Under the pieces are notes generated by a model. That model saw only the letters and a list, made by a program, of their open reading frames with translations. It was not told the DNA's origin and did no database searches. Position numbers and translations under genes: made by a program. DNA of 19,323 nt, the filler included, from an uncultured Methanosarcinales archaeon (GTDB taxonomy: Archaea; Nanobdellota; Nanobdellia; Woesearchaeales; CAYSVS01), in NCBI GenBank assembly GCA_964589485.1. It is 2 parts of 2 records of this genome, joined end to end, with 100 filler letters (N's around TTAATTAATTAA, not from the genome) between each part and the next. Parts side by side here need not be neighbours in the genome. Positions count along the whole stretch, not along the records: positions 1 to 9,810 come from CAZPRK010000021.1; 1 more part is not named here. The stretch is one strand, 5' to 3'. Positions 1-15,609 of the stretch are shown here, in pieces; the stretch's first letter is position 1; each line of letters opens with the position of its first letter.

Positions 1-1343
1 TTTTGTTTTTCTTTTAATAATTGTTTTATTTTGCCTAATATTTTGTGTTCTTTATTTTCTTCATCTTCAATTTCTTTTATTATATCGCTTTCTTCAGTTT
101 CAGAACCATTCTCATTTCTTTTCCTTATGAACAATACTAATAATATAATAGCAATTAAACCACCAACTCCACCGCCTAATTCCCATCCTGAGAAACCATC
201 ATCTTTTTCATCTTGTTCTGGAGTTAGGGTAACTTGAGGGTTACTTTTCAAAAAATCATAGTACCTTTGAATGATGTTAATAATACCATTTGCCCAATTT
301 GGATCTTCTTGATTATATAATTGTTGAACATCTTTTACTAATTTAAAAACGTCTTTATGATTTTTGTATGAATCAACATAACTTCTATAGTTTCCTTTAG
401 ATCCATTTTTTAAAGTGATGGTATTTTGATTATACATTTTACTTACAAAACCGTTTACTGAACCTATTTGTGAACTGTACTTTTTACAAGTAGTACCTTC
501 GCAAGGATATCCTTCCTCTCCTTTTTTAGCATGAATTCCAAATAGATTATTACCTTTTGTAATGTACTCTGATTTTTTATTTGCTACGGCCCAACCGCTT
601 TCCCATGCACTAACTGCCATTATATATTCGGAAGGTAAATCTTTATTTAGTGAAAAAAAACTATTAACTGTTTTTCTTTTGTATCCATGATTTTTATTTT
701 CTCTATTAATAAAAGCCCACATTAAATCTGAATTAGATTGAAGTTCATCATCTAAAATAATTTCACTAGGTGTTGTACTCCCGCTTTCAAACTCTTCTTC
801 AACAACTAAACTAGGGGAAGTACTTCCTTCAAAAGTTTCAGTTAAACTTTCTCCAAAGTTATTGGCTAAGTCACCCCAACCGTACAAAAACCCAACCAAT
901 AACACAGTTGTAATTAAAGCTAAAATAAAACTCCATATTCCATTTGCACCCATGCTTTGAAATAATTTAAAAAATAATATAAAAACAGCTAATATGATAA
1001 AAACTCCAGCAACTGGAAATAAATTTTTAACAGTAAGTTTTCCGCTCCAAACTAATGCTAATGATAACGCAAAACCAAAAGTAATTCCTATAACATTCGC
1101 TGAACGAGTATGATTTTCTCCTGCCCATGCTCTTAACCCTATTAAACTAAATGAAGTTAACAATGCAAAAAATACAAAGAAATCAACTACTTTAGTTCCG
1201 GTAGGACCAAGCGTAGTTAAAAATCCACCTAATTTAGCAAACGCTCCTTGAACTGCATTTTTAGATCTACTTATAAAAATAGGTTCAGCTAATACGCTTA
1301 AACTATTTAAAATAACCATTATGACTAATATTATTTTTTTCAT
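1..1343 (-). CDS. Multipass membrane protein with extracellular GH73 (glucosaminidase/FlgJ-like) lysozyme-fold domain; 3'-partial, >=447 aa; absent from ORF track
   Basis: Manual translation from ATG at 1343 is open to the window edge. It shows a signal peptide (MKKIILVIMVILNSLSVLA|EP), 4 hydrophobic helices and an acidic linker. It then reads IMAVSAWESGW (Glu codon 600-602), GNNLFGIH, KKYSSQIGSV and LYNQEDPNWANGIINIIQRY, matching GH73 motifs AxxESGWG / NNLFGIK / YxS / YATDPxYAxKLxxII. A TM helix (GVGGLIAIILLVLFI), RKR and a charged tail follow. Confidence 0.85.
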   Translation of the reverse strand, partial: MKKIILVIMVILNSLSVLAEPIFISRSKNAVQGAFAKLGGFLTTLGPTGTKVVDFFVFFALLTSFSLIGLRAWAGENHTRSANVIGITFGFALSLALVWSGKLTVKNLFPVAGVFIILAVFILFFKLFQSMGANGIWSFILALITTVLLVGFLYGWGDLANNFGESLTETFEGSTSPSLVVEEEFESGSTTPSEIILDDELQSNSDLMWAFINRENKNHGYKRKTVNSFFSLNKDLPSEYIMAVSAWESGWAVANKKSEYITKGNNLFGIHAKKGEEGYPCEGTTCKKYSSQIGSVNGFVSKMYNQNTITLKNGSKGNYRSYVDSYKNHKDVFKLVKDVQQLYNQEDPNWANGIINIIQRYYDFLKSNPQVTLTPEQDEKDDGFSGWELGGGVGGLIAIILLVLFIRKRNENGSETEESDIIKEIEDEENKEHKILGKIKQLLKEKQ

Positions 1344-1344
1344 T

Positions 1345-2481
1345 TTATACTGCTTTATCCATTTCCTCTTCATATTGACCTAAACTTTGCCCAACTTGAT
1401 TCATTGCTTTTGGAACTATTTTTTGAAATTCAGAAATGTCTGAATTTACTTTTTCTATTCTTTTCATGCTAAGATTGATATTTTTATATATCTCTGTAAT
1501 CATTTCTTTTTTAACAACTTTTTCATGATCTTTTAAACTATTAATCCATCCGACAGACTTTGTTATGTATAATGCGTGTTTTTTAATATCTTGATACTTT
1601 AATGCAATTGTTTCTCTTAAACTTTCTAATTGTATTAATTTTTTATCGTAATTTATTAATAACTCTTCTTTTCTAATATTAAACCTAGCTATTTCTTTAA
1701 TTCTTTTCCTACACAGGTTAATAATGCTTTCATTTATTTTTCTTCCTTCATTTTCAATTTTTTGTATTCTTTCTTCTAAAATTTTAGCAATACCTATAGT
1801 GGCATCTCTTTCAGAACTAACTAAATATTTATTATCACTTAATTCGTTTAATTTCTTAGTCATAAAATCTAACCATGCTTGATGATTTTCATGAACATTT
1901 TCTTCTTCATTCAATAATGCGTTTTTAAAACTAGTATCTCCATACTCTTCAAACCTATGGGCTATTGTTCTAATTTGTTTAATAAAATGTTTTCTAAAGA
2001 ATTCCCATTTTTTTTGTTCACCGGACTCTGTTAATTTATCATGTAACTCATTTAAATAATCTAATTCTCTTTGATAAAAGAAAACTCTTTTGAAAAAATT
2101 AGATTTAGTGATTTTTTTAACTAATTTTCTATCTCCCATTTGCGCTAAATGATTAAGGTAATTTCTAATTTCATCTATAAAATGTTGCACTGTTCCAGTA
2201 TGAGTTCCTGATAATAAATTATTTCTAACTTCTTCAAGATATTCCTTTTCATTTTCAGGTGGAAGTTTAAGTTTATTAATTTGTTTAACTAAATTACTTT
2301 CTGGGTTTAGTTTAATTAATTCTTGAATTAATAATTTAACATTAACTGTACCTGATCTAATAACCCCTTTTAACATATTTGATTCATATGAAAATGATAT
2401 ATTCTTAACTTTACTAGTAACTTCTTTGACCTTTTCTAGGTCAACATTTCTCTTTCCTGTGAATATTTCAACTATTTTCAT
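1345..2481 (-). CDS. Hypothetical alpha-helical/coiled-coil protein, 378 aa
   Basis: Long K/E/L/I-rich ORF with heptad-like C-terminal half and no TM or catalytic motif seen. Its stop is 1 nt from the next ATG (1343). Confidence 0.8.
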   Translation of the reverse strand: MKIVEIFTGKRNVDLEKVKEVTSKVKNISFSYESNMLKGVIRSGTVNVKLLIQELIKLNPESNLVKQINKLKLPPENEKEYLEEVRNNLLSGTHTGTVQHFIDEIRNYLNHLAQMGDRKLVKKITKSNFFKRVFFYQRELDYLNELHDKLTESGEQKKWEFFRKHFIKQIRTIAHRFEEYGDTSFKNALLNEEENVHENHQAWLDFMTKKLNELSDNKYLVSSERDATIGIAKILEERIQKIENEGRKINESIINLCRKRIKEIARFNIRKEELLINYDKKLIQLESLRETIALKYQDIKKHALYITKSVGWINSLKDHEKVVKKEMITEIYKNINLSMKRIEKVNSDISEFQKIVPKAMNQVGQSLGQYEEEMDKAV

Positions 2482-2653
2482 TTTTTGATAAGTTTGGGTT
2501 ATTAAAGTTTAAATTTAATGATCTTTCATTTAATTTTTTATCCTTTGTCGATATTGTAATCTCTGGTTCTGTTTGTTGTTTGCTATTAGATGAATGTGTA
2601 AATATTTTTGGTACATTATTAGTATTAAGATCAGTTGTATTCCCATTATCTCC

Positions 2654-4408
2654 TTACTCTACAACAACCTCTTCTTTAACTTCACTTGGTTCAAGAGCCT
2701 TATCACACAAAGCTTTAATTTCTTCTGAAAGATTTTCAATTTCTCTATCTTTTTCATCTCTTTGTGTAATTAGAATATTGATATTTCTATCTTTGTCTGT
2801 GTATTCCCTAGTTAACTCTTGAATAGGTTTTAGGATTTTTTCTAAATCTAACATGTATGCGTTAAAGGTTTCATCTTGTTTTTCTGAAGTAATTTTTTCT
2901 CTTATGATTTCTTGTAAACTTTTTTTAATGTCAATTTCATTACACATATTTCTAAATCCACTTTCATCTAGTTGTGAAATATTTTGTCTTGCGCCCATTG
3001 CTTGATAATTTGTCCAAGCAGTTTTAATAGCGTTAATTCTTTGATTTCCTAAGTCATTCAAGCTTCTATTAAATTTAAATATACTTTTCTTGCTTCCATA
3101 CTTATGTTTATCTATTGAATTTTGAAGTTTGTTACGTTCTTTTTCTAAATTTTTAAATTCTTTAGTTTTTTTCTTAATTTTTTTACTAACTGCACTTTCT
3201 TTTCTAAACCATGCAGCTATATCTAAAAGCTCTTTTGACGTTTTTTTAAGAAAATTCCATGCATTTTTGGCAATTTCTTTAGTATATTTTTGTATTTTTT
3301 GTTTACCTGCTTCTTTAATTGCTTTATTAAATCCAGTATCTAAAGCTCCTGATTCAAAAATTGCACCTAAAAAATAACCCACAATCATATTTCCTATAAA
3401 ATTAGTACTTGGGAACAGTGGAGCTAATGGTTCCCCTCCTATTTTTATTCCGCTTGCAACTCCATGAACTATTGCAAATGATAAAGACCATGCCCATTCC
3501 CATGAGACTGTTTTTTCAAACTTCTTCCTTAATACAAATATGAATAATATGTATGCAATTGATTTTACTGTAGTTAATCCTGTTCCGCCATTAGAAGCCA
3601 TTGCTGCTAAATATATAGCTAAAGCCCAACCAATTCCTTTAGATTCTAATTCAAAATAACCTAACAATAACCATGAATATAATAAAACTGAAATGATAAA
3701 TACGCCTAATGGGTAATGAGTTTCTCCGCCAACAATTGCACTGGTTGCTAAAATACCGTACTTGATATTATCTCCAACATTATAATACCCTGAATGTCCA
3801 GTGCTATCTCTTTCACCAAGTAAAAACTTTTCACCACCAACAATAAACTCCATATCCCAAATATATTCATCTACGTGTTGTGAACCATCAAATGCTGCTG
3901 CATGTGCACTCATTATTGCAATTACAACACTTAACAAAATAAACGCAATTTTGCCAGTATTATCATCTTTAAATGTATCTTTCATAAAAAAACTTTTAAT
4001 AACAACAAAAATCAAGCTAAGTATTGCAATATTAACAATTGGCTTTACTGTTAATCCTCCATCAAACCAATATAACCAACTGATAGATTTATTGCTGTTA
4101 AGAGCTTTATAGATCCATTCTATACTTCCGAATTTGAAACTTAAAACTAAAGATAGTGCTGCTAACATAAAATAAATAATGTATTTTTGTGCATTACCGC
4201 TACTCCAATACCCATTACTTGAATTTAATTGTTCTTTTAATCCAGGAATGAAACTTGATAAAATTAAAATTGCAAAAAATATAATTACAAAGTTTCCAAT
4301 TAATATTCCCCATTTTATTTGACTAAATGTGATGGCTAAAGCAACATTGCTCATTAAAGTAGCAACTATGAAAAACATTACAATTTTTAATAAATTGTTA
4401 TTTTTCAT
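2654..4408 (-). CDS. Multipass membrane protein with C-terminal coiled coil, 584 aa (frame stays open to 2468 past the TAA)
   Basis: Signal-peptide-like N-terminus (..SNVALA), about 9-10 hydrophobic segments in the first ~350 aa, then a K/E-rich coiled coil. ATGA overlap with the ATPase gene at 4405-4408. Confidence 0.85.
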   Translation of the reverse strand: MKNNNLLKIVMFFIVATLMSNVALAITFSQIKWGILIGNFVIIFFAILILSSFIPGLKEQLNSSNGYWSSGNAQKYIIYFMLAALSLVLSFKFGSIEWIYKALNSNKSISWLYWFDGGLTVKPIVNIAILSLIFVVIKSFFMKDTFKDDNTGKIAFILLSVVIAIMSAHAAAFDGSQHVDEYIWDMEFIVGGEKFLLGERDSTGHSGYYNVGDNIKYGILATSAIVGGETHYPLGVFIISVLLYSWLLLGYFELESKGIGWALAIYLAAMASNGGTGLTTVKSIAYILFIFVLRKKFEKTVSWEWAWSLSFAIVHGVASGIKIGGEPLAPLFPSTNFIGNMIVGYFLGAIFESGALDTGFNKAIKEAGKQKIQKYTKEIAKNAWNFLKKTSKELLDIAAWFRKESAVSKKIKKKTKEFKNLEKERNKLQNSIDKHKYGSKKSIFKFNRSLNDLGNQRINAIKTAWTNYQAMGARQNISQLDESGFRNMCNEIDIKKSLQEIIREKITSEKQDETFNAYMLDLEKILKPIQELTREYTDKDRNINILITQRDEKDREIENLSEEIKALCDKALEPSEVKEEVVVE

Positions 4409-5508
4409 TTTAGTTCCTCTTTTGAAATATTTTTTGAATCTAAAACTAATACATGATAAATGTAAAATTGCATTACTTCTTCTGAAATAGAGAAATATTT
4501 GTCATTTTTAGAAATTAAATCAACTTCCAATAATCGATCTACTAAACTTTTTGTAACTGGTCCGCTTCTATATATTTTTGAAGCAATTTCTGTTAACCTT
4601 AATGGTTTATTTTGAGCTAAAACTTTAAGAATATTAAATAAGAGCGTTTGTCCTCTTGCTCTAGAAAGATTTTCATGAAGCGAAAAACGCAAGGCATTAT
4701 AAATAATACCTTGTTCATTTAACACTTCATGAATGTACGCTTTATCTACAGATTTTAACTCTTTGTATTTATTACAAATTGCTAAGGTAAACATGGGGAT
4801 TCCATTAGATAAAGCATATATTCTGTCAACCTCTTTTTCCCCAGTGATTTTGAATTTATTAGTTAATTGTTTTACAGTTTCTCTGTCAAATTCATTCATG
4901 GTTTCTGTTTTTAATTTTAATTTTTGAGAAATAGTTGTCATTTCGTATTTAGCGCTACTACTACAAACTAAATTAGTTTTTTTCCAATTTAAATTAATTA
5001 TAGATAATATGTCTTTAATTTGTAAGAAATTATTAAATTCAAGTATTTTATGAAACTCGTCCAGAAAAAGCATGCAATGAAAATCATCTTCTTGAGCCCA
5101 TTTATCTAGAAATGAAAAACTCCACTCAATTAATTTCTGTTGATTTGGTTTAATTTTTTCTAGTTCGTTTTTAATCTCTTTTACTATACTTAATCCAGGA
5201 AATTTTAATTTTAAGATTTCTTCGAATGTTAATTTTTCATTTTTAATTTGAGAAACACATTTTTCAATAAATTCAACTGAAAAACTTTCTGGGCTTAAAC
5301 TAATTTTTTCTAAGTCGACATAAACATTTTTTATGTCTTTATTTTTAAGAATTATTTGTTTTATTGTACTTGTTTTACCAATATTTCTATTCCCTATAAT
5401 TGCACTATGAGAAATGTGACCTTTTTTTAGATTTTCTTTATTTTTTCTAAATAACTCTAAGAAATACTCTCTTCCTGTAAATAATTCGTTTGTTTCCAAT
5501 ATTTCCAT
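4405..5508 (-). CDS. Archaeal ATPase (ATPase_2/AAA-type P-loop) with C-terminal winged helix-turn-helix
   Basis: N-terminal FTGRE, Walker A GNRNIGKTS, Walker B MLFLDEFH and GIP motif. The C-terminal ILKVLAQNKPLRLTEIASKIYRSGPVTKSLVDRLLEVDLISKNDKYF is a typical wHTH. Confidence 0.88.
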   Translation of the reverse strand: MEILETNELFTGREYFLELFRKNKENLKKGHISHSAIIGNRNIGKTSTIKQIILKNKDIKNVYVDLEKISLSPESFSVEFIEKCVSQIKNEKLTFEEILKLKFPGLSIVKEIKNELEKIKPNQQKLIEWSFSFLDKWAQEDDFHCMLFLDEFHKILEFNNFLQIKDILSIINLNWKKTNLVCSSSAKYEMTTISQKLKLKTETMNEFDRETVKQLTNKFKITGEKEVDRIYALSNGIPMFTLAICNKYKELKSVDKAYIHEVLNEQGIIYNALRFSLHENLSRARGQTLLFNILKVLAQNKPLRLTEIASKIYRSGPVTKSLVDRLLEVDLISKNDKYFSISEEVMQFYIYHVLVLDSKNISKEELK

Positions 5509-5550
5509 CTTTAATTATACCAATTGGCATTAAACTTAATCTATATTCTT

Positions 5551-5565
5551 CTATTTAAATGTTTG
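5551..5565 (-). promoter_or_regulatory. BRE/TATA promoter of the ATPase operon
   Basis: Minus strand CAAACATTTAAATAG, with TATA box at 5559-5552, about 44 nt upstream of ATG 5508. Confidence 0.55.
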
Positions 5566-5588
5566 TTTTTTAGTCGACAATTTTTATT

Positions 5589-5642
5589 AAAAAAATAAAA
5601 AAAGTGCCTTGAAATTTGGGGGTAGGTATATTTTCAAGGCAC
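5589..5642 (-). terminator. 11-bp stem hairpin followed by U-tract (intrinsic terminator-like)
   Basis: GTGCCTTGAAA (5604-5614) pairs with TTTCAAGGCAC (5632-5642). On the minus strand it is followed by T7-A-T7 (5603-5589), and the loop contains CCTACCCCC. Confidence 0.6.
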
Positions 5643-5690
5643 AAAATTAAATGTGCTTTTAGTATTTATACCATTTAGTATATTTCTTAT

Positions 5691-5707
5691 TTTATATAAA
5701 TGTTTCT
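5691..5707 (-). promoter_or_regulatory. Second BRE/TATA promoter upstream of the hairpin
   Basis: Minus strand AGAAACATTTATATAAA shares AAACATTTAWATA with the promoter at 5551-5565. No ORF lies between it and the hairpin. Confidence 0.5.
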
Positions 5708-5810
5708 ATTTTTTATTAATTTTATGTTTAAAAAATAGTCCATTTGGTATTTTTAATATTTTATTAATTAATTTAACTTAACTATGCCATTCTGTATACT
5801 TTCTTCTTTA

Positions 5811-5828
5811 CAGCAAGATATTTAAATA
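5811..5828 (+). promoter_or_regulatory. TATA promoter of rpl35Ae (probably leaderless or short leader)
   Basis: CAGCAAGATATTTAAATA, with TATA at 5821-5828, 20 nt before ATG 5849. No SD seen. Confidence 0.5.
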
Positions 5829-5848
5829 AACTAATATTTCTGGCTATA

Positions 5849-6106
5849 ATGAAAGGTTTAATACAAAGTTACAGAAGAAGTAAGCATTGTCAGACACCAA
5901 ATCAAGTTATTGTTCTGGTACCAAGCGTTGACACTAAAGAAAAAGCAAAAGAGTTTGTAGGAAAGAAAGTAACATGGACAACTCCTGCAAAAAACGTTAT
6001 TAACGGTGAAGTTAGATCTTCGCATGGTAATTCTGGTGCAATAAGAGTATTATTTGAGAAAGGTATGCCTGGTCAATGTTTAGCAACTGAAGTTCAAATC
6101 GAATAG
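5849..6106 (+). CDS. rpl35ae: 50S ribosomal protein L35Ae (eL33)
   Basis: 85 aa with the family signature SYRRSKH.Q.PNQ ... GKKV.W ... G.V...HGNSGAIRV.F.KGMPGQ. Confidence 0.96.
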   Translation: MKGLIQSYRRSKHCQTPNQVIVLVPSVDTKEKAKEFVGKKVTWTTPAKNVINGEVRSSHGNSGAIRVLFEKGMPGQCLATEVQIE

Positions 6107-6142
6107 GTATTTTATTATTATATGTATTAATTAGTGATAACT

Positions 6143-7411
6143 ATGGCGAAATACAATCAAAGAGAATTAATGGATCTTTTTTTAAAAAATAGATTAACTG
6201 ATCAAGATTTAAAAGATTCTGGTTTTAGGATAGATAGAGGCGATGGAATCAAGTTTATTCAATTAGCTGATGAATCTGATATTAAGTTAGCATCTGAAGT
6301 TCTTTCAATAAAGGAAAATCGGTTATTGGGGAAAGGTGTTAAAGGTAGACCTTTAGAATTTCTTTTACAAAAAAAACAAGGTTTTTCGGATATGGGTATA
6401 ACAGAAATTAAACGGTTGTATTATGATCATAGTGTGCTTGATGATAAGTTGAATCCGAATTCTTTTCCAATTTCAGATTTTGTGGTTATGTTAGGAAGTG
6501 GAGCATTCAAGGAAGAAGTTTTCAAAAGGTCTTTTAGAGAAACCAAAACAAAAAGTCTTGAAGAAATTTATTTTGATCAGATTAGGGGAAAAGATATGTA
6601 TAAATTTTGTTTTTCTGAACAAGGTATTTATGCAATGGATGCAAATTCTTTATTAAAATATTTTGATATTGCTTATGATGGTGGAAAAATAAAACCTAGT
6701 TTGTTGAAAATGATTAGGTATATTGCATCTGAAAGATTTAAGGTTAATGTGGATATATTTATGAACAAATCACGTGAAGCTATTGATAATTTACACCAAA
6801 TAAGAAATTTGGAAGTACAGACTCCTTTAGAAAGAGAATTTATTGGTTTTGATTCATTACAAGATGAAGATTGGTTTTTACATTTTGATAATTTTGGAGA
6901 TATTCTGGTTGATTTACAAACAAAGATGTTAAATAAGCCTAATTTGTATCCTCATATGGCTCAAAAATATACAATGCTTTCTTATTTTGTTGACTTACCT
7001 GATTTGGAAGATTTTGTTAAAGAATTATTTTCTAAGAATTTACATAGATTTGGTAAAATGCCAGCAATATTGTTAAGTGATGAGGCTTACGATGGAGCCA
7101 TAAGGGAAGTATATGATTCTAGAATTAGAGAACTTGAGGGAAAAGATCCATATTTTGCATTAAACGTTATTTCGCATTTGGAAACTAATTTGAATTTTAG
7201 TGTTTCTGATATAAGGGGCGAAAGAGCAAAACATCATAGGCAAGTTCTTTCAGGATTAAGGTTGGAAAGTGTTAAACGACTTACTGATGAACAATTTGCA
7301 ACTTTATCAAGAAAACCAAATGCATACAATGGTTTACCTGAAATTAGAAATTATGTGTTAAATAGATTTAAACTATTAGATCAAAAAGAATATAATAACA
7401 GGAATCATTAG
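6143..7411 (+). CDS. Hypothetical soluble protein, ~422 aa
   Basis: Long ORF with host-like codon use. ATG 6143 is preferred over GTG 6134 because SD-like AGTGAT precedes it. No motif recognised; the 3' end overlaps tctA convergently by 36 nt. Confidence 0.75.
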   Translation: MAKYNQRELMDLFLKNRLTDQDLKDSGFRIDRGDGIKFIQLADESDIKLASEVLSIKENRLLGKGVKGRPLEFLLQKKQGFSDMGITEIKRLYYDHSVLDDKLNPNSFPISDFVVMLGSGAFKEEVFKRSFRETKTKSLEEIYFDQIRGKDMYKFCFSEQGIYAMDANSLLKYFDIAYDGGKIKPSLLKMIRYIASERFKVNVDIFMNKSREAIDNLHQIRNLEVQTPLEREFIGFDSLQDEDWFLHFDNFGDILVDLQTKMLNKPNLYPHMAQKYTMLSYFVDLPDLEDFVKELFSKNLHRFGKMPAILLSDEAYDGAIREVYDSRIRELEGKDPYFALNVISHLETNLNFSVSDIRGERAKHHRQVLSGLRLESVKRLTDEQFATLSRKPNAYNGLPEIRNYVLNRFKLLDQKEYNNRNH

Positions 7412-8587
7412 ACACCCCATTGCATTGTTTCTACCTACACCAACTAATGCAGGAATCATTCCTATGGCTGTGCTTATTATTAATACTGATATCCCCCATA
7501 TTCCTGATATTAATATTACTAAAATAAAAATTAAACTAATTATGCTGATACACATTTTTTTATAGTTTAATTTAGTAATTATTTTTGCAAATATTTTACT
7601 TACCTTTAAAGCTAATATGGTAGCAATACCTCCTGCAATTAATGCAGTGCAAAGAAAAATAATCAGTTCAGACATATTTATTTTTTCAACAATTTCTTTT
7701 ACAACAATAATTGCTCCGTTTCTTGCTTTTTCTAATGAGAATAAAGTAGCTAAAGAAAATACGAAATTCACAGTGTTTATTCCTCCAATTAACACCATAA
7801 ATGCATAAATGCCAACATTACCTACAATTTCAACTGCAATTATTGCAGCTTGTGCACTTCCCAGTCCAGGAAAAATCCCGGTTAAACTTCCTGAAAAAAC
7901 TGCTGCCATAATTGCTTTAAAACCTTTTATTTTTTTTAATATAATAGTTTCTTCAAATGTTTGTATTGGAATAGAAACTTGATCATTTAATGATAATAAT
8001 AAAGTACTAATTCCGAACATTCCAGATAACATCGGAAATAAAGGTTGTGATAAATTTGGAAAATTTAATACAATTATTCCTAATATGCCTGATAATACAA
8101 AAACAAAAAAACTCCATAATTTCTTACTTATTCCGTTGTTTCTTAAAATCATATAAATACTTACAAATAACAATATCCATCCTATATATGGATTAATAAA
8201 ATTATATAAAGTTGGTAAGATTGGAATTGTTACTGGAATTAACATTATTGTTAATATTAAACAAATTAAACTTCCTATGACGGTTAATTTAATTGCTTCA
8301 AACCCTTTCCCTTCCATTAACAATTTATGTCCTGGTAAAACGTTTAATGCTTGATCTGCATCTGGAGCTCCAAGAAAAATAGAAGGAATACTATCTAAAA
8401 AGGAATGTGTTACAGCCATTGCAATAATAAAAACACCTAAACTAATTTTATTAACATAAACAAGAAAATAACCAGAAACGCTTAACAATAAAATACTAAT
8501 TAGATTAATATGAATGCCGGGAATTAAGCCTGTGATAATGCCGGAAGCCACACCGAGCAATATTGCAGCTATTATTTCGAGAAACAT
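7376..8587 (-). CDS. Tripartite tricarboxylate transporter TctA family (DUF112) membrane protein
   Basis: Motifs GLIPGIHIN, HSFLDSIPSIFLGAPD, VLPGHKLLMEGKG.EA, PMLSGMFG and GIFPGLGSAQA, with about 11-12 TM helices. Confidence 0.93.
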   Translation of the reverse strand: MFLEIIAAILLGVASGIITGLIPGIHINLISILLLSVSGYFLVYVNKISLGVFIIAMAVTHSFLDSIPSIFLGAPDADQALNVLPGHKLLMEGKGFEAIKLTVIGSLICLILTIMLIPVTIPILPTLYNFINPYIGWILLFVSIYMILRNNGISKKLWSFFVFVLSGILGIIVLNFPNLSQPLFPMLSGMFGISTLLLSLNDQVSIPIQTFEETIILKKIKGFKAIMAAVFSGSLTGIFPGLGSAQAAIIAVEIVGNVGIYAFMVLIGGINTVNFVFSLATLFSLEKARNGAIIVVKEIVEKINMSELIIFLCTALIAGGIATILALKVSKIFAKIITKLNYKKMCISIISLIFILVILISGIWGISVLIISTAIGMIPALVGVGRNNAMGCLMIPVIIFFLI

Positions 8588-8865
8588 ATAAACCCTAAAT
8601 CGCCCAGATTTATATATTTCACGCCTTCTAAACCGAAATCTCTCCAGTTATTTTGTAGGTTTTTTCGACTCTCTTTCTATCTCTTTTCGCCCGGAAATAT
8701 GTGGATTCCCAGACCAAACTTTGACAACCTAAGACCATAAAAGGATTATGGCGATAGTTCGTCACTTTGTACAGTGTGTATAAAAAGGATTTTAAAAGGC
8801 TTGTCATATTGTTGTGCATTCCCGGACTACTTTCAAGAAGTTTAATCAACTTGGCAGCCTTGAGG

Positions 8866-9498
8866 CTAATTTAACAACTTCATCAGAGGATCCAGGTCAT
8901 TAAATCCATTAAGAAACTCAAGAAGGTATTTGCGAGTTTGTGGTTGCTTTTTTCTCAATTGAATAGCATATGATAAAACCACTTCATATGTACCTTGTAA
9001 ACTTTTCCGAACATTTTGAGCTTTTGGCACAAAGAGTTTATTCAGTTTGGGTGATTTGAGATTCGGATTAGAAAGAATATAGATATACTGAATAATTTGA
9101 TCCATCGCATCAACTGCATTAATATCTGAAGAGATGTAATTTTTTATATCTTCTTCGCTCAATAATCTGTCTATAAAATCTTTAACTTTACTGTCAGGCT
9201 CAATTTTTTTTAGATCAAAATAGAACTTTGAATTTAATGTATATCTAATAATATCTGTGTGGCTTTTATGAAACTTTCCGAGTTTACTTTTCTTTACAAA
9301 TTCAGTCTTGAACTTTTTCTGATCTAGCCAACCGTATTGTTTGAATCGATAAAAATAATATGCGACAGTCCTATGATTCCAACTTTTTGGATGCATGGCT
9401 GAATATTCTTCTGATGCTTCTTTCAATGTTAACCAATCCATTAGAAACATCTTCAGAATCTTCTCAGATTGTTCTGTTGAATTAAATATTATTTTCAT
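8866..9498 (-). CDS. Putative winged-helix DNA-binding protein, 210 aa
   Basis: N-terminal KILKMFLMDWLTLKEAS...HRTVAYYFYRFKQYGWL...RYTL pattern resembles a wHTH with a long basic wing. Divergent from the RHH genes. Confidence 0.6.
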   Translation of the reverse strand: MKIIFNSTEQSEKILKMFLMDWLTLKEASEEYSAMHPKSWNHRTVAYYFYRFKQYGWLDQKKFKTEFVKKSKLGKFHKSHTDIIRYTLNSKFYFDLKKIEPDSKVKDFIDRLLSEEDIKNYISSDINAVDAMDQIIQYIYILSNPNLKSPKLNKLFVPKAQNVRKSLQGTYEVVLSYAIQLRKKQPQTRKYLLEFLNGFNDLDPLMKLLN

Positions 9499-9562
9499 TT
9501 TACCCTATGCAAGGTAATGGCTAGGAATATATTAATGTTACGTATGTTTACACACTTTTATT

Positions 9563-9703
9563 ATGAATAAGACAATATCTCTACCGGATGAATTGCTTGA
9601 AAAGGTTGAGAAGCACGCTTATGAAAGTGGGCGAACTTTCTCAGGGGTGGTTAGAGTCTGTCTGGAAAGGTATGTTGAGAATGTGCAGGAGCAGGTTAGT
9701 TAA
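9563..9703 (+). CDS. CopG-like ribbon-helix-helix protein, 46 aa; absent from ORF track
   Basis: MNKTISLPDELLEKVEKHAYESGRTFSGVVRVCLERYVENVQEQVS matches the RHH consensus (TISLP.EL...l...A...G.s.S.vvR..l..Y). Confidence 0.85.
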   Translation: MNKTISLPDELLEKVEKHAYESGRTFSGVVRVCLERYVENVQEQVS

Positions 9704-9810
9704 TGTTAGGTTATCAGAGAGGCAGTATAATCTTTTGATAAACAGAATGGAGGCGATTGGTTATCGTAATATGTCTCAGTTTATCAGAGATAGCTGTCTC
9801 CGAGATGATC
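9681..9810 (+). CDS. Second ribbon-helix-helix (MobC-like) protein, truncated by the gap
   Basis: MCRSRLVNVRLSERQYNLLINRMEAIGYRNMSQFIRDSCL matches the RHH pattern (V.vRLs..ey......a...G...mS.fiR). Overlaps the first RHH gene by 23 nt. Confidence 0.75.
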
Positions 9811-9910
9811 NNNNNNNNNNNNNNNNNNNNNNNNNNNNNNNNNNNNNNNNNNNNTTAATTAATTAANNNNNNNNNNNNNNNNNNNNNNNNNNNNNNNNNN
9901 NNNNNNNNNN
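9811..9910. other. Assembly gap with artificial TTAATTAATTAA six-frame stop linker
   Basis: 44 N, then TTAATTAATTAA (9855-9866), then 44 N, exactly 100 nt in total. Confidence 0.97.
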
Positions 9911-9954: not shown

Positions 9955-12900
9955 TCAAACTTGGGCTGAAGGTCTGTTCCCTGTTGTGGGTAATGTCTTT
10001 GGAAGATTTATTTTTGTATTACAATTAAAATTTTGAAAATAATCATCTATTTTTGTAATACTAGATGGATGAATTACACTTTTTTTACCTTCAATAGTTA
10101 TTTTAAGTGGAAGTACTTTATCATTTGTAGTTAGTTCTTTATGTACTTGTTTTATGCTTTTCAAAATATTTTCTTTAAAATTTTCACATGATGTTGAACT
10201 TTTTATTTTTTCGCTTAATTTTTGGTTTACAATTCCTTGTTCTGAATTAAGGTTGGGATTTATACTATTTTCATTAAAATCCCAATAGTACGAAGCTGTG
10301 CTTTCAAAGAAATTACCGCCGTAATTAAACCAAGCATGTTCTGGATCAACAGTAATCTGTAAACTTCTTTGTGGATTAGATTTATCTATTTGTTGAATAG
10401 GTTCTCTATATGCAACTGGCCTATCTTCTTGTTTATTTTTATTTTTTGATTCTTGAACTTTACTTTTAGTTGAAGATTTACAATCTATATTTCCATTGAA
10501 AAATTCAGTTAAATCAGTTCCACTTCTAACACTTTTAGAATTATCTTTTATTTCTACTCTTAATGTAGGGGGATCACTAATAGTTTCTTCATAACTTCGT
10601 GTTATTGCAGAATTTAAATCTTTCAAAAAATCTTTACAAGTTTGAGGGTTACTATCTTTAATTCTCTCTGCTATTTTTTTATTAATATCTGAACTTCCTT
10701 CATCTGGAATATAGTTTTTATTTTCAAAATCCCAGTAATATTTCGAAGTACTATCATATATAATTCCTACATCTCTAACAGTAATAATACGAGTTTTTCC
10801 ACTAGTTGGTTCTTTTTTTTGTTCTTTCTCTATTTTAGCTTTTTTAACCTCTTTAATTTCCTTATAACACTTATTATCTACGCAATACCTTCCTTCTTCA
10901 CTTGTTCCGCATTTTGTAGTTCCACAAAGACATTTGTCATTTTCGTATTCGCCATCGAATTTACATTTATTATCATCAATTTGTTTTCTAGGTTCAACTT
11001 TAATCGGAATATCTTTTTTCCATTCAAATTCAGATAATCTTAATCCGTCTTCTGCAGTTGTATCTTGACAATCATCGCTTTTATCAGATAAATGTCTTAA
11101 CTCTAACCTTAAGTTCCAATCTTTTTTATTTGATTCTAATTTAGTTCCTTTGGCATAAACTATAACCATAGTATGACCTAATCTTTTATTTCCACTTGCT
11201 TGAGTTTCAAATGCAGATCTAAGATCATTTATTTTTAGTCTAACTCCTCTGTGAGTAATTATTTCTTTTAAATTTCCTTGAGTTGTAATTTCTTTTTTAG
11301 AATTTTCTTTTAATACTCCATCATATATTTCAAATCTATCCTTACCATCAAAAGTAAATCCATCTGGTTCATTGTCTATGAATTTAATTGTAAATTCTAC
11401 ATCTCTTTCATTTTCCTGAGATAAAACTTGTAATGAAGCTGTTCCTCTATATTTATCAAAAGCATCAAATTTAACTTGACCATTTGAAAGAGTTAAGTCT
11501 GCAACTTTAAATTCGAGTTCAGTACTTTTAACTATTTTTTTATACACTGGCTTAAATGCAGATAATTTTCCACCAGTTTTACTTTGTAATTCTGCATATA
11601 AACATTGAGGTTTATCTTCACTTTCTAAGAAAACGTTTCCTCTAAACCATAATTCATCTCCTGGACTGTAAGTTGTATCTACTTTAGGTAAGTCTATTGT
11701 TGTAAAGTATGCTCTTCCTTTAGCGTCCCATAAAAAATCTGTTCCAGTACATAAATATTTTCCAGTTAATTGATCAAATGAACAAGCTACAATATCTTTT
11801 TGAGATTCATCTCTTAATGGGAAATAAAATACTCCATCTTTATTTCCTTCAGGTAAGCAACTTTCTCTTGCCTTAGCATCAAAAATATGTAACTTAACTT
11901 TTAGGTGGTCATATCTATAAGGCGATTCAACTATTTTAGAATGACTTTTATCTTCAAATTGACCTTGTGTAAGTTGATCTCCAGAATAGAAAAATTCATT
12001 CTTTTCTTCATTTAGATTAAAACAATCACATCCTTGATTTGGATGATTTTCTCCTGCAACTTGTTGACAAGATAATCCTTTTTCGAATGCAGTCTTACTA
12101 TTAATACAAGCTAATTCTGCAGTATATCCGTTAATTTCACATCCAGGGACAATGTTCCAAGCAGCTCTATATTCATATTGAGCTGTATCTTTGTAAGGAA
12201 CAAAACGTAAGTATTTTCTATTAACAGGGAAAGCTCCAACCATAGTGTTAAATGTACTTGAATAAGCTCCATCTAAAATATTATCCATACTTAATCCCCA
12301 ATCTCCTGTAATAGATCCAAGACAAACTTTTCTCATTATTCCCCTTGTTCCGCCACCTAAATAATTAGTTAATGCAGCATTACCATATTCGTCATTTAAT
12401 TCTTGTGCACTTTCACCAATACTATCAAATATAGAAGAAACTGTCATTTTTAACTGGTTTCCTCCGCCTCTATTTCCACCAAGTATTTTATCGTCTGGTG
12501 CACAACCTTCTGAAAAGTAACTTACAACTTGATACATACTTTCACACATATATTGAGTAAATATTTCTTTACATGTTCCTGAATCAGCTTCACCTGTTTT
12601 TTGAATTTGTGAAAAGCAACCATTTAACCCAGACATAATATTTTTCAAAGCTTTTAACCTATTATATATCCCAGATAAACATAAACATTGAAATGCAGAA
12701 GTATGTTGTTGCGGTGTTAAAATTGGCATTTTCTTTTTATAAATAAAATTATCTTGTCCGAAACAACTTGTAAAATCTCTATCTTTTAGATATTTATTTT
12801 CATTAAAACATTTAATTTTAAGTAAATTTTCTCTATAACTATATTCATCTCCTGAAGATATAATGACCTTAGGATTTTCTTTTTTCATTTGTTCACATTT

Positions 12901-15609
12901 AGGAGAAATTTGTTTAGTGTCTATTTTTTTTAAATATTTATTATCAATAAAATCATCTTTAAAATATGATGGAATATCATTTTCTTCAATCATTACTTGT
13001 TTATTACTTTTAACTACTGTTAATGTATCAGGAGGGCCACTTAAACCTCCACGCGGATATACTTTCTTTAGAATATATTTTTCTCCTTCCTTGCCACCAT
13101 CAAAAACATATTGACCTCCATCAAAAACATAATATGAATTATATTGTTGGTTATTTTTAGGGTGACCTTGTTTATAATCTAATACAAAACCCCTAGTACT
13201 TATTTTTTCTTTATTGTTACATCTTTGAACACTTTGAATTGCAGTTTTTACTTCACTTTCAGAAGCATCCGCAGTCCATTTAGCTGGAGTGCTATGACAT
13301 AATAATCTATCTGCAGCCCACCTGAAAACTGTATTCATTTTTTCTTCTTGTTTCCAAGCTAATTCACATTTAGTGCAACCTTTATCTCTCATTTCCTTAT
13401 CAGTCATTTCATTAATTTTTTTACAATCTTTACTTGTAGATTGTTCAATTTTACATGTAGCTTTTCTTACTCCCCTTGTAACAGCTTTTGCGATAAATCC
13501 AGCAATAGTTGCAGCTGCAGTTACTTTTAATGCTTGATCAATTTTAGGTAGAATTTTATCTATAGTTTTAATAGTACTATTAGTTAATTTAATAGAATCT
13601 TCTAAAAGCCAGTCTGGTAAAACTTTTCTTGGATCAATTCTAGAATTATCTAAATTATAAGAAACTTCAAAACATTTTTTCATAGGTTTAGTTTTACCGT
13701 TTTCTGAATATGTTAATAATGCATCAAAAGGAAAAACAACTTCATTAGTCATAGCTTTAATGAAATCTTCCATTGACAATCCTGTAGTTTTTCTTAAGTT
13801 TTCAATTTCGTTTAAGTTATAACTAAAATACCAAGCACTTTTATCAGGATTAGCTTTTTTAATTAAAGGTGAACTTTCTGGAAGAATGTCACAACTTAAA
13901 TTATATCTTTTATTTTTATTACTTGTTCTACATCTTTTTTCTAAACTTAAATCATCAACTTCCCAATCTTGTGCATTTCCATTGTATGTTAAATTTAATA
14001 TAAACGAAATTTGTTCACTTCCCTCTTCTAACCTATCAGGGCTTAATGTACTTGGGCTTTGGTATTTAGTTAACGGCATTATTGTAAATTTAGTTTCACC
14101 GCCACCACATGGAACTATAATGAAACTTAACCTTTGTTCTTGCCCTATATTTCCGCTAAGGTCAGTTGCTACTAAAGTAATGTCAATATTTTTTTCATCT
14201 TGAATGTCAACTATGTTTAAATCAATATTATTTGGGTCTTGTGGAAGGTGTGAACCAGATGCACTGAAAAAAGTTTCAATGTTAAGTCTTTTAAATTCAA
14301 AATTTCCATCTTCATCTGCAATAGCTGTTTCTCTTACATTATTGTTAGCAGAAAGTTGAACAGTAGCGAAAGGTTCAGTTTTTCCTTTAATTGTAGTTCT
14401 AGTTCCTAATGAACCTTGATCAATATAATACCCAGAACCAAGTGCATCTTCTGGGGAAATGTCAGTAATTTCAGGAGCAATTGAATCTTTAGTAAAATTA
14501 ATTTTTCTTATATCTTTATTTCCAGCATTATCTGTAGCTGTAATGGTTAAAAAGTTTCTTCCCTCTTCAACTGGAATGTCAATTACAAAAGTATTATCTG
14601 TAATAATTGGATCGAATTGATATAACTTTTTACAATCTTCTTCCGGCATAAGAGGAGTTCCTTCCTCAGCTTCACTTTCACGTGTAGTGTAAGTTAATGA
14701 AGATTCATCGTTTTCATTACAGTTATTATCAACTATTATTATTTTATATTCGTATTGAGTATTTGACCCTGTATAATGATCAGTTACAGTGTTTCCTCTT
14801 TGTATTGCGAATAATCTATCATTTCTATATATTTTGTAATATTTAACATCTTCATTGTTATCCCAGGTTAAAGTAACGCTACTTAACCCTTCTTGATCAA
14901 CTCTAAAGTTAGATATTTTTTCTTTAGTTGTTAACCTTTCATTTTTCAATGTATATATAATTGAAACATTTTCAGTAACTTTTCCATTTATTCTTAGATT
15001 ACTTTGTTCTTCTTTGAATATAGCGGGAACTTCACTTAAAGTTAATTCTGGGTCTATTGTATCAACTTCAATGTCGTAATAAAATTCTTTTTCTTCATCT
15101 GCTGTTACTTTAAAATAAATGTTGTTTATATTATTAGGAATTAATTTTACTCTAGAAAACCTAAATTCACCATTTCCAGTATCTGAATTAAATTTAGATT
15201 CTTGGTTATTAACTGTCATTAGAACTTGACTATTTGCAGGAGTTTTTCCTCTTATATCAATGATTGCTTTATTATATTTTTTTGGAAGGTCAACTTCAAA
15301 ATTTAAGTTACTTAATTTAGTTTTAAAAGTTGAAGGTGTTGATTCTTCAGTTTCAGTAACAATTTGATAGTTATATGTTGTATCTTGGGTTAAATCTTCT
15401 ATTAATATTGAATGTTCAGTGTTAGAGTTTGATGTTTTTGATTCAGTTAAAGCTGAAGTTCCATATTTAATTTCCGCAGTTGTACTTTCATCTGTTGTAA
15501 AGTCAATTGAAGCAGTTGTTTTTTCTGTAGTAACTTCAATATTAGATATAGCTGAGATAGGTGTAACTAGTAAAATTAATATTATAAACATACTTAATAT
15601 TTTTTTCAT
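9955..15609 (-). CDS. Giant secreted/surface protein, 1884 aa: FN3 and Ig-like domains, Cys-rich core, duplicated C-terminal domain
   Basis: Signal peptide MKKILSMFIILILLVTPISA. FN3-like motifs (IKYGT..HSILIEDLTQDTTYNYQI; VTLTW..YKIYRN..YEYKI) and Ig/Big-like motifs (VDTIDPELTL; EGRNFLTITATDNAGN; DSIAPEI; ATDLSGN). Many Cys after about aa 500; no C-terminal TM. Confidence 0.88.
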   Translation of the reverse strand: MKKILSMFIILILLVTPISAISNIEVTTEKTTASIDFTTDESTTAEIKYGTSALTESKTSNSNTEHSILIEDLTQDTTYNYQIVTETEESTPSTFKTKLSNLNFEVDLPKKYNKAIIDIRGKTPANSQVLMTVNNQESKFNSDTGNGEFRFSRVKLIPNNINNIYFKVTADEEKEFYYDIEVDTIDPELTLSEVPAIFKEEQSNLRINGKVTENVSIIYTLKNERLTTKEKISNFRVDQEGLSSVTLTWDNNEDVKYYKIYRNDRLFAIQRGNTVTDHYTGSNTQYEYKIIIVDNNCNENDESSLTYTTRESEAEEGTPLMPEEDCKKLYQFDPIITDNTFVIDIPVEEGRNFLTITATDNAGNKDIRKINFTKDSIAPEITDISPEDALGSGYYIDQGSLGTRTTIKGKTEPFATVQLSANNNVRETAIADEDGNFEFKRLNIETFFSASGSHLPQDPNNIDLNIVDIQDEKNIDITLVATDLSGNIGQEQRLSFIIVPCGGGETKFTIMPLTKYQSPSTLSPDRLEEGSEQISFILNLTYNGNAQDWEVDDLSLEKRCRTSNKNKRYNLSCDILPESSPLIKKANPDKSAWYFSYNLNEIENLRKTTGLSMEDFIKAMTNEVVFPFDALLTYSENGKTKPMKKCFEVSYNLDNSRIDPRKVLPDWLLEDSIKLTNSTIKTIDKILPKIDQALKVTAAATIAGFIAKAVTRGVRKATCKIEQSTSKDCKKINEMTDKEMRDKGCTKCELAWKQEEKMNTVFRWAADRLLCHSTPAKWTADASESEVKTAIQSVQRCNNKEKISTRGFVLDYKQGHPKNNQQYNSYYVFDGGQYVFDGGKEGEKYILKKVYPRGGLSGPPDTLTVVKSNKQVMIEENDIPSYFKDDFIDNKYLKKIDTKQISPKCEQMKKENPKVIISSGDEYSYRENLLKIKCFNENKYLKDRDFTSCFGQDNFIYKKKMPILTPQQHTSAFQCLCLSGIYNRLKALKNIMSGLNGCFSQIQKTGEADSGTCKEIFTQYMCESMYQVVSYFSEGCAPDDKILGGNRGGGNQLKMTVSSIFDSIGESAQELNDEYGNAALTNYLGGGTRGIMRKVCLGSITGDWGLSMDNILDGAYSSTFNTMVGAFPVNRKYLRFVPYKDTAQYEYRAAWNIVPGCEINGYTAELACINSKTAFEKGLSCQQVAGENHPNQGCDCFNLNEEKNEFFYSGDQLTQGQFEDKSHSKIVESPYRYDHLKVKLHIFDAKARESCLPEGNKDGVFYFPLRDESQKDIVACSFDQLTGKYLCTGTDFLWDAKGRAYFTTIDLPKVDTTYSPGDELWFRGNVFLESEDKPQCLYAELQSKTGGKLSAFKPVYKKIVKSTELEFKVADLTLSNGQVKFDAFDKYRGTASLQVLSQENERDVEFTIKFIDNEPDGFTFDGKDRFEIYDGVLKENSKKEITTQGNLKEIITHRGVRLKINDLRSAFETQASGNKRLGHTMVIVYAKGTKLESNKKDWNLRLELRHLSDKSDDCQDTTAEDGLRLSEFEWKKDIPIKVEPRKQIDDNKCKFDGEYENDKCLCGTTKCGTSEEGRYCVDNKCYKEIKEVKKAKIEKEQKKEPTSGKTRIITVRDVGIIYDSTSKYYWDFENKNYIPDEGSSDINKKIAERIKDSNPQTCKDFLKDLNSAITRSYEETISDPPTLRVEIKDNSKSVRSGTDLTEFFNGNIDCKSSTKSKVQESKNKNKQEDRPVAYREPIQQIDKSNPQRSLQITVDPEHAWFNYGGNFFESTASYYWDFNENSINPNLNSEQGIVNQKLSEKIKSSTSCENFKENILKSIKQVHKELTTNDKVLPLKITIEGKKSVIHPSSITKIDDYFQNFNCNTKINLPKTLPTTGNRPSAQV

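Follow-up and report, generated by a model that had tools for sequence, protein, structure and literature searches.

A divergent GH73 domain predicted to face outwards on a membrane scaffold with exchangeable heads in a Woesearchaeota-like archaeon

The DNA analysed here (the window, 19,323 bases in full) joins two contigs of one archaeal genome artificially, positions 1-9810 being C21 (CAZPRK010000021.1) and those after 9910 being C22, with an artificial spacer of N runs around TTAATTAATTAA at 9811-9910. Genes beyond window 9810 are therefore not neighbours of the gene that concerns us, which lies at the very start of C21 and whose first 457 codons (P0001) occupy window 3..1373 on the minus strand, the reading frame being open at the contig start and continuing in frame on a further contig, C11. 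Its product combines a signal peptide and four transmembrane (TM) helices with a domain that belongs to the GH73 family (PF01832) by sequence criteria and is predicted to lie outside the cell, tied to the membrane on both sides. It is the module of signal peptide and four TM helices (hereafter the scaffold), and not the GH73 domain, that is conserved in this protein, and relatives carry other murein-directed heads in the place of GH73. In the reading that we prefer, to which we give a probability of roughly 0.55, the anchored GH73 domain cuts the wall glycan of a bacterial partner at cell-cell contact.

The GH73 domain extends over aa 245-372 (window 258-641, on the minus strand like all the features of this gene and its operon given below), as delimited by Pfam, alignments and structural comparisons of an AlphaFold2 (AF2) model with Foldseek and VIA-align. 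Its match to PF01832 scores 44.8 bits (E 2.4e-11; curated cut-off 30.2) and runs from position 12 to position 122 of the 123-position profile, so that the HMMER comparison places it above the cut-off over nearly the whole profile, and a separate six-frame scan of the whole genome gave 48 bits for the same domain. The original prediction had recognised the domain by four motifs in an unlisted ORF, and both the ORF and all four motifs are present on the minus strand: AVSAWESGW (aa 253-261), NNLFGIH (aa 275-281; window 531-551), KYSS (aa 298-301) and YNQEDPNW (from aa 353; window 294-317). The start of the ORF is the upstream Met at 1373 rather than the one at 1343. The catalytic-type Glu formerly called E248, a number counted from the second Met (window 1343), is E258 (window 600-602) in our numbering, which follows the upstream Met at 1373 because orthologs align from it. 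The Glu of the E-(S/T)-G motif is the general acid in studies of FlgJ and Auto. In an alignment of 93 profile-collected GH73 sequences E258 is the only invariant column, as it is in a 7-sequence alignment. At the position of Y353, which belongs to the YATD-like motif, nearly all sequences of the larger alignment have Tyr, and this residue pairs with Y-ATDPNY in the alignment with 5t1q.

Structural comparison pointed in the same direction. Twelve of the 13 best Foldseek matches of the AF2 domain model are GH73-type wall hydrolases, among them FlgJ of Salmonella and Sphingomonas, AtlA, Auto, LytB and TM0633, the other one being a type VI secretion effector-immunity complex; the best is the FlgJ structure 5dn4 (E 6.2e-3, probability 1.00). 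All 11 chains retrieved by VIA-align with Z of at least 5 are likewise GH73-type (best Z 6.5, rmsd 4.3 Å over 122 residues). The lysozyme-like GH73 fold that had been anticipated was matched, with modest scores, and it is the profile match and the fold matches together that confirm a GH73-type domain, the fold scores being insufficient alone. With FlgJ, Auto, AtlA and LytB, its best fold matches, the domain shares the E-S-G, NNLFG and Y-x-x-D-P motifs, but it differs from them in a pairwise similarity below significance, in the lack of rod-binding, LysM, SH3 or choline-binding modules and in its archaeal context. Identity as FlgJ was rejected, the NCBIfam FlgJ and Bax equivalog scores being far below cut-off (19.6 vs 456). 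An origin as a phage endolysin was also rejected: a PHROG endolysin matches the GH73 domain weakly (E 1.1e-5, the domain alone), none of the 11 other window ORFs matches PHROGs, and the flanks consist of housekeeping genes in an order shared across the genus.

The domain is very divergent. Among 1.84 billion representatives, a phmmer search with aa 190-400 yielded no match at E ≤0.001, and of 161 candidates of near length from a word-indexed homolog search with aa 195-400 none reached that threshold either. The only phmmer match of the domain in the PDB was 5t1q (E 0.094), and the best among 95 profile-found GH73 proteins had E 0.02. As no pairwise relative within GH73 is significant, no donor lineage can be named. 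The earlier description of the domain as hidden is fair in one sense, that no single sequence in 1.8 billion representatives is a significant relative, and in that sense only. Judging from its conserved residues, this divergent domain is probably catalytically active. A second, more canonical GH73 protein occurs in the same genome (661 aa, PF01832 88 bits, contig C1, L005:625-2610, minus strand), with a pilin-like N-terminus and two small pilin-like ORFs directly upstream (L005:2594-3046 and 3039-3485).

The predicted topology agrees with the earlier proposal of a GH73 domain held outside the cell at both ends. The signal peptide (aa 1-29; window 1287..1373) has a basic n-region followed by a hydrophobic stretch and an inferred cleavage site between VLA and EP, where the same-genus orthologs have VSA before and AP after the signal-peptidase site. 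It opens the conserved scaffold module (aa 1-195; window 789..1373), which is delimited by homologs and the AF2 model and further comprises an amphipathic helix and four TM helices at aa 62-82, 92-112, 119-139 and 146-166 (window 876..1190; hydropathy and AF2). An AF2 model of aa 1-200 built with 33 homologs (pLDDT 83.9) places helices at 56-84, 89-110, 115-140 and 145-183. Hydropathy marks aa 167-399 as a hydrophilic stretch, which begins with an acidic, Ser/Thr-rich linker of low pLDDT between TM4 and GH73 (aa 167-240; window 654..875) and is followed by a fifth TM helix recognised by hydropathy (aa 400-416, GGGVGGLIAIILLVLFI; window 126..176), an RKR stop-transfer signal and the start of a K/E/I-rich cytoplasmic tail (window 3..125). 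The positive-inside rule and hydropathy agree at both ends, and the predicted topology sets GH73 outside and the C-terminal side inside whether the signal peptide is cleaved or not. The ectodomain contains a single Cys pair (Cys291/Cys296, within the GH73 domain) and one N-glycosylation sequon.

On C11 the tail runs on for about 590 more residues, as far as C11:33497. Contig ends of this assembly overlap by exactly 55 nt, and no contig end other than that of C11 matches the start of C21; joined there, the frame stays open and the protein has 1045 aa instead of about 450. The join is supported because the overlap is both exact and unique, because at the contig end the C11 ORF has no start codon and its frame matches that of C21, and because the C11 genes for 310-, 128- and 212-aa proteins have homologs downstream of the orthologous scaffold gene in two same-genus genomes. 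The resulting tail of about 630 aa is of coiled-coil type (17% Lys, 15% Glu, 11% Ile) and has no Pfam family, no relative in the retrieved loci and no paralog in the genome; its origin by simple gene fusion is unsupported, as it shows no similarity to the 608-aa gene that follows the ortholog in the same-genus genome G218. Exact 55-nt overlaps occur in eleven contig-end pairs and could order much of the assembly into larger scaffolds.

When P0001 was searched against 401 genomes of the same order, 38 of them matched (37 of 400 without the unpublished genome G458), always over aa ~3-197 and never in the GH73 part. A profile built from 33 scaffold sequences recovered the family in 108 of the 401 genomes of a phylum sample, all from the same class (106 of 399 without the unpublished G332 and G412). 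The window protein scores 151.5 bits against this profile, partly a self-match since its own sequence is among the 33 rows, and fits the family in having the signal peptide, the helix with the (I/V)DFFxFF Asp, three more TM helices and an ectodomain that varies from aa ~170 onwards. Over aa 3-195 it shares 35-40% identity with its same-genus orthologs. The only invariant residue of the scaffold is the Asp of the (I/V)DFFxFF motif, Asp64 (window 1182-1184), at the outer end of TM1, and a Pro is conserved in TM3. There is no Pfam family for the module; its best Foldseek match in the PDB has E 0.21, the highest VIA-align score among 48,161 chains, Z 7.2, concerns only a helical hairpin of 55 residues, and the ESM Atlas returned matches only to unnamed Nanobdellota clusters (0.79-0.81). 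From the model, the scaffold has no assignable known fold and gives no evidence of a new one either.

Variation in the ectodomain is the property of this family that bears most directly on function. We surveyed the heads with Pfam (E ≤0.01) in 36 loci from other genomes, which contain 44 scaffold ORFs. The same-genus ortholog of G218 carries an SLT lytic transglycosylase domain at the GH73 position (aa 239-341; 22.7 bits, cut-off 21.3), and that of a second same-genus genome, G295, is homologous to it through the SLT region with a deletion, giving a reduced SLT-like head; both orthologs lack the fifth TM helix and the tail. OmpA-family matches were obtained in 7 of the 44 ORFs at aa ~245-340, two above cut-off (33.6 and 31.4 bits) and five below, and an iterated search from two OmpA-like heads located the domain, without a change of position, in 11 out of 49 scaffold ORFs. 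SLT matches were found in two of the 44, one above cut-off, the other being that of a 1691-aa protein of G194 (L043:1037-6112, minus strand) in which an SLT-like domain just below cut-off (20.1 bits) is accompanied by a Peptidase_M23 domain (58.8 bits), MepM/ShyA-like by NCBIfam. Some 33 of the 44 scanned ORFs had no informative head match. To our knowledge GH73, SLT, M23 and OmpA-like domains bind or cleave murein in characterised systems. Since SLT, M23 and OmpA-like domains occupy the same position in orthologs and paralogs, their common denominator is peptidoglycan, and the view that the head is directed at peptidoglycan comes out strengthened. GH73 is itself rare in the phylum: of 201 genomes sampled, nine have it, this one among them; in the eight others the ORFs with GH73 have no scaffold, so that GH73 on the scaffold is observed here only. 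Two unrelated cutters of glycan strands, GH73 and SLT, thus stand at the same gene site within one genus, and the apparent replacement of one by the other is, as far as the domain matches indicate, new here. One of the 33 or so ORFs without an informative head match, for a 1669-aa protein of G463 (L046:1090-6099, minus strand), has a GT4 glycosyltransferase domain (PF00534, 66.6 bits, aa ~1064-1377), by which scaffold proteins can also carry enzymatic domains C-terminally, presumably on the cytoplasmic side.

The scaffold gene belongs to an operon in which an AAA ATPase, a polytopic membrane protein and a coiled-coil protein precede one or two scaffolds and three small conserved genes. In the window the first operon gene (4405..5508) encodes a 367-aa AAA-type "archaeal ATPase" with a C-terminal MarR-like winged helix and overlaps the next gene by 4 nt; this encodes the 584-aa polytopic membrane protein, which has a charged C-terminal tail and no Pfam family (2654..4408). 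The third (1345..2481) encodes a 378-aa soluble protein of coiled-coil type, found directly upstream of scaffold genes in relatives too. Both same-genus genomes, G218 and G295, have the order TctA, L35Ae, ATPase, polytopic membrane protein, soluble protein of ~420 aa, scaffold and homologs of the 310-, 128- and 212-aa proteins. The succession of ATPase, membrane protein, coiled-coil protein and scaffold was found in all four loci with long flanks, and, of 20 other stretches upstream of scaffold genes, 13 contain an ATPase homolog; three of the seven misses are cut by the edge of the contig or of the retrieved stretch, with the membrane or coiled-coil gene present there. Conservation of the operon frame extends far outside the genus. 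For the 584-, 378-, 310-, 128- and 212-aa proteins and for the tail, only sub-threshold noise came from Pfam, NCBIfam and PHROGs, and the ESM Atlas gave no usable match for the 584-aa protein. BLASTP between the scaffold-GH73 protein and the 584-aa protein was not significant. An iterated profile of the latter pulls in scaffold proteins at weaker E-values, which may reflect a distant relationship or drift on TM composition.

The contig and the genome (1.16 Mb in 23 contigs, 27-28% G+C, 99.9% completeness estimate) are archaeal and Woesearchaeota-like. A bacterial contig was rejected on the strength of archaeal markers on C21 and C11: C21 itself encodes ribosomal protein L35Ae (Pfam, E 5e-17), and the adjoining C11 encodes RNA polymerase subunit L/Rpb11, L10/P0 with the archaeal/eukaryotic insertion domain, acidic P1, a PAC2 proteasome chaperone and isoprenoid-lipid genes. 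Related records carry the label Woesearchaeota or Nanoarchaeota archaeon (four loci only, from a locus search with a 3-row alignment). An SSU rRNA was not found in the assembly, so that the taxonomy rests on the protein markers and the labels of related records. As had been supposed for peptidoglycan, the genome shows no murein or pseudomurein synthesis of its own in the families searched: the sole match to the Mur-ligase family (Mur_ligase_M) in the genome is FolC (TIGR01499, 319 bits), the family search found no penicillin-binding protein (PBP) transpeptidase, and no pseudomurein-type ligase appeared beyond a weak sub-threshold similarity of FolC.

On this basis the preferred reading can be spelled out. 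The signal peptide and the four-TM anchor would hold the GH73 N-acetylglucosaminidase head on the outer face of the membrane, and the fifth TM helix would return the chain to the cytoplasm, where the coiled-coil-type tail of about 630 residues begins. The scaffold would thereby present a murein-directed head at the archaeal surface within a multi-protein membrane assembly, the heads being exchangeable across relatives (OmpA-like, SLT, SLT with M23, and here GH73) and serving to bind or cut bacterial peptidoglycan; that of the window protein would cleave the glycan chains in the wall of a bacterial partner at the point of contact between the cells. Tied to the membrane by about 75 residues on one side and about 25 on the other, it could reach a bacterial wall only at a distance of a few nanometres or less. 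We infer from the data the catalytic activity, the peptidoglycan substrate, the action at cell-cell contact and the bacterial partner, and a bacterial host or prey is plausible.

Several observations weigh against this reading. If the cell has an S-layer, such short tethers would hold the enzyme beneath it, and the peptidoglycan of diderm bacteria lies beneath their outer membrane; moreover, we know of no Woesearchaeales archaeon with a known host. Neither the 457 aa in the window nor the tail on C11 has a Pfam match other than GH73, and no recognised cell-wall-binding domain was found in them. As most heads are of unrecognised type, the word peptidoglycan covers only the identifiable minority. 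The full-length protein of 1045 aa depends on the join of two contigs. The AF2 model of aa 215-395 has a mean pLDDT of 63.5, with 53 residues below 50 and core helices at 72-86, and the fold scores are modest throughout, with no Foldseek match at E ≤0.001, TM scores of 0.37-0.49 and Z below 8. Finally, the second carboxylate is not clearly conserved, the alignment with 5t1q setting K297 opposite the Glu of T-L-E. A second catalytic carboxylate in the beta-hairpin is a feature of FlgJ/Auto-type members and is not universal in GH73; E286, E287 and E292 lie within 5-11 residues of its site, in a poorly modelled loop.

That archaea of this group possess wall-cutting enzymes and might have bacterial hosts is an idea already published for SLT/GH23 proteins, and the GH73-bearing scaffold fits the proposal that such archaea touch or attack bacteria. 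Castelle et al. 2021 (PMC8204110) describe SLT proteins in Woesearchaeota and Pacearchaeota (fam00969, murein-like lytic transglycosylase), consider possible bacterial hosts and ask if there are DPANN archaea that live on bacteria. Predation was proposed by Vigneron et al. 2022 (PMC9723730), who found GH23 genes, and an mBio paper of 2024 (PMC10936187) repeats the SLT/GH23 observation. Those proteins resemble ours in the group of organisms, a wall-cutting domain at the surface, a murein-free archaeon and the proposed role of binding or degrading bacterial walls, but the domain here is GH73 and stands on a four-TM scaffold, anchored on either side and continued by a long tail in the cytoplasm; the scaffold operon and the swapping of heads are not among what the available parts of PMC8204110 and PMC9723730 describe. 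Membership of the woesearchaeal SLT family fam00969 was rejected, as neither the window protein nor the rest of the genome has an SLT (PF01464) match, and the two could only work alike. Searches of main texts in the full-text literature returned no paper pairing "Woesearchaeota" with "GH73" and none joining "DPANN", "OmpA" and "peptidoglycan-binding".

Among the alternatives, the best placed, and still an unlikely one, is that the GH73 head is an antibacterial weapon that harms neighbouring bacteria on contact or after proteolytic release, in the manner of the hydrolases secreted by haloarchaea. Archaeal peptidoglycan hydrolases that kill bacteria are documented: a PLoS Biology paper of 2025 (PMC12352652, Strock et al.) reports that 175 of 3,706 archaeal genomes, prominently those of Nanoarchaeota, encode modular peptidoglycan hydrolases, and describes a haloarchaeal enzyme with killing activity and, in the same haloarchaeon (Halogranum salarium), a PF01832 protein (Danwoldo). 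The patchy distribution and the fast swapping of heads even within a genus are, besides, typical of arms-race genes. Woldo and Danwoldo share with the window protein an exported archaeal peptidoglycan-hydrolase domain, in Danwoldo also of the PF01832 family, but they are soluble, secreted by the Tat or Sec route and equipped with PG_binding_1, whereas our protein lacks any cell-wall-binding domain, is tied at both ends and sits in a conserved multi-gene membrane operon, unlike a stand-alone, secreted modular enzyme. It does not fall under their definition of a modular archaeal peptidoglycan hydrolase either, PF01832 being its sole Pfam match; the survey required at least one wall-binding domain beside the catalytic one, so that proteins like this one lie outside its net. 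Many of the scaffold heads, moreover, are OmpA-like binders and not killers.

It is improbable, in turn, that the substrate is another GlcNAc polymer, belonging to the archaeon itself or to an archaeal host (a surface glycan or a pseudomurein-like or chitin-like polymer), and that the operon remodels the envelope. Such a role would suit the wide distribution of the scaffold operon (108/401), as expected of a housekeeping envelope function, and the many heads without a recognised type, and the extreme divergence from bacterial GH73 may have brought a shift in specificity. It is opposed by the murein specificity, established in characterised systems, of every identifiable head type, and by the lack of pseudomurein-type ligases noted above; GH73 enzymes, as catalogued in CAZy, are known to us solely as murein glucosaminidases. 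Scavenging is a poorer candidate still. Here the enzyme would trim free peptidoglycan fragments near the archaeal membrane for the uptake of amino sugars, a task to which a membrane-proximal site is suited where the fragments diffuse, and the genome, small and probably that of an auxotroph, does contain one gene of the Glucosamine_iso family. MurQ, however, scored no more than 19.5 bits where the cut-off is 302, and NagA had no match in the genome, so that wall sugars as food have no genomic support and the earlier suggestion of feeding on bacterial walls receives no backing from known genes of amino-sugar catabolism; no transporter is linked in the operon, and the OmpA-like and M23 heads of relatives are ill-suited to a harvest of sugars. 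Very unlikely, lastly, is a decayed, catalytically dead domain kept as a glycan-binding or spacer module, as might be read from the lack of significant single-sequence relatives, the absence of about 25 canonical GH73 residues between the FRxY-like region and the YATD-like motif, the uncertain second carboxylate and the visibly reduced SLT-like head of the G295 ortholog, for the general-acid Glu, the NNLFG motif and the Tyr of YxxDP are all kept and the profile match spans nearly the whole model.

Comparison with bacterial machines helps to place the preferred reading of a contact-dependent wall cutter. PrgK, TraG of pIP501 and CwlT, from the conjugation systems of monoderms, and VirB1 are membrane-anchored glycan cutters, some with M23 or CHAP domains, that open the wall locally for a trans-envelope machine. 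With these conjugation hydrolases of the PrgK type the window protein has in common a wall-cutting head on a membrane anchor, and the SLT and M23 domains of the G194 protein make up a PrgK-like set of heads; in contrast to the hydrolases of type IV secretion systems (T4SS), the wall in question would be that of another cell, and the anchor is a different, archaea-specific four-TM module. A T4SS-associated hydrolase was rejected, Pfam and NCBIfam showing no VirB4, VirD4 or relaxase families in the operon here or in relatives. MotB, TolR and Pal offer an analogy only, in that a membrane anchor with an acidic TM residue is combined with an OmpA-like ectodomain, as in many scaffold members; no relationship in sequence or fold was found (TolQR Foldseek E 0.2, TM 0.13), and the window protein has GH73 instead of OmpA.

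It is tempting to speculate that the operon as a whole encodes a cell-contact machine of Nanoarchaeota/Woesearchaeales, class-wide and fitted with exchangeable heads that bind (OmpA-like) or cut (SLT, M23, GH73) peptidoglycan, a generalisation that we regard as tentative and somewhat doubtful. Were it true, a large fraction of a diverse and uncultured group would live attached to bacteria rather than to archaea, the type of head (binder or cutter, of glycan or of peptide bonds) would record the wall met by each lineage, and the membrane-embedded invariant Asp and the long tails would couple the outer head to an energised or cytoskeletal inner part. The replacement of SLT by GH73 at one gene site within a genus suggests selection on the cutting of murein glycan and not on one enzyme. 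Besides that replacement, what is new here is that a widespread scaffold family and its operon are defined, and that the head is tethered twice and followed by a long tail in the cytoplasm. The scaffold family and the conserved operon provide a searchable genomic marker and a set of proteins to localise, the double hold on the membrane predicts action only at tight cell-cell contacts, and the small, expressible ectodomain makes the question of the substrate (murein, pseudomurein or the cell's own glycans) directly testable.

A few observations concern the genome and the remainder of the window. Two same-genus public records (L068/G295 and L069/G218) carry the label "uncultured Methanosarcinales archaeon", which is probably wrong, since the window's genome has no McrA, measures 1.16 Mb at 27-28% G+C and falls together with Woesearchaeota/Nanoarchaeota records. 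Beside folC on contig C8, a 381-aa ORF (L067:2121-3266, plus strand) has a sub-threshold similarity (64 bits, cut-off 161) to MtrA, subunit A of tetrahydromethanopterin S-methyltransferase. A 92-aa "NikA-like" ORF at window 9588..9866 on the plus strand (Pfam E 4.6e-4) crosses the spacer and was discarded as an artefact. On C22, an 1884-aa ORF (window 9955..15609, minus strand) shows weak matches, all below cut-off, to the Ig-like/fibronectin-type families Big_6, Pur_ac_phosph_N and Glucodextran_B, and is followed by ORFs of 622, 242 and 361 aa on the same strand without a family, the group being probably another large surface protein cluster.

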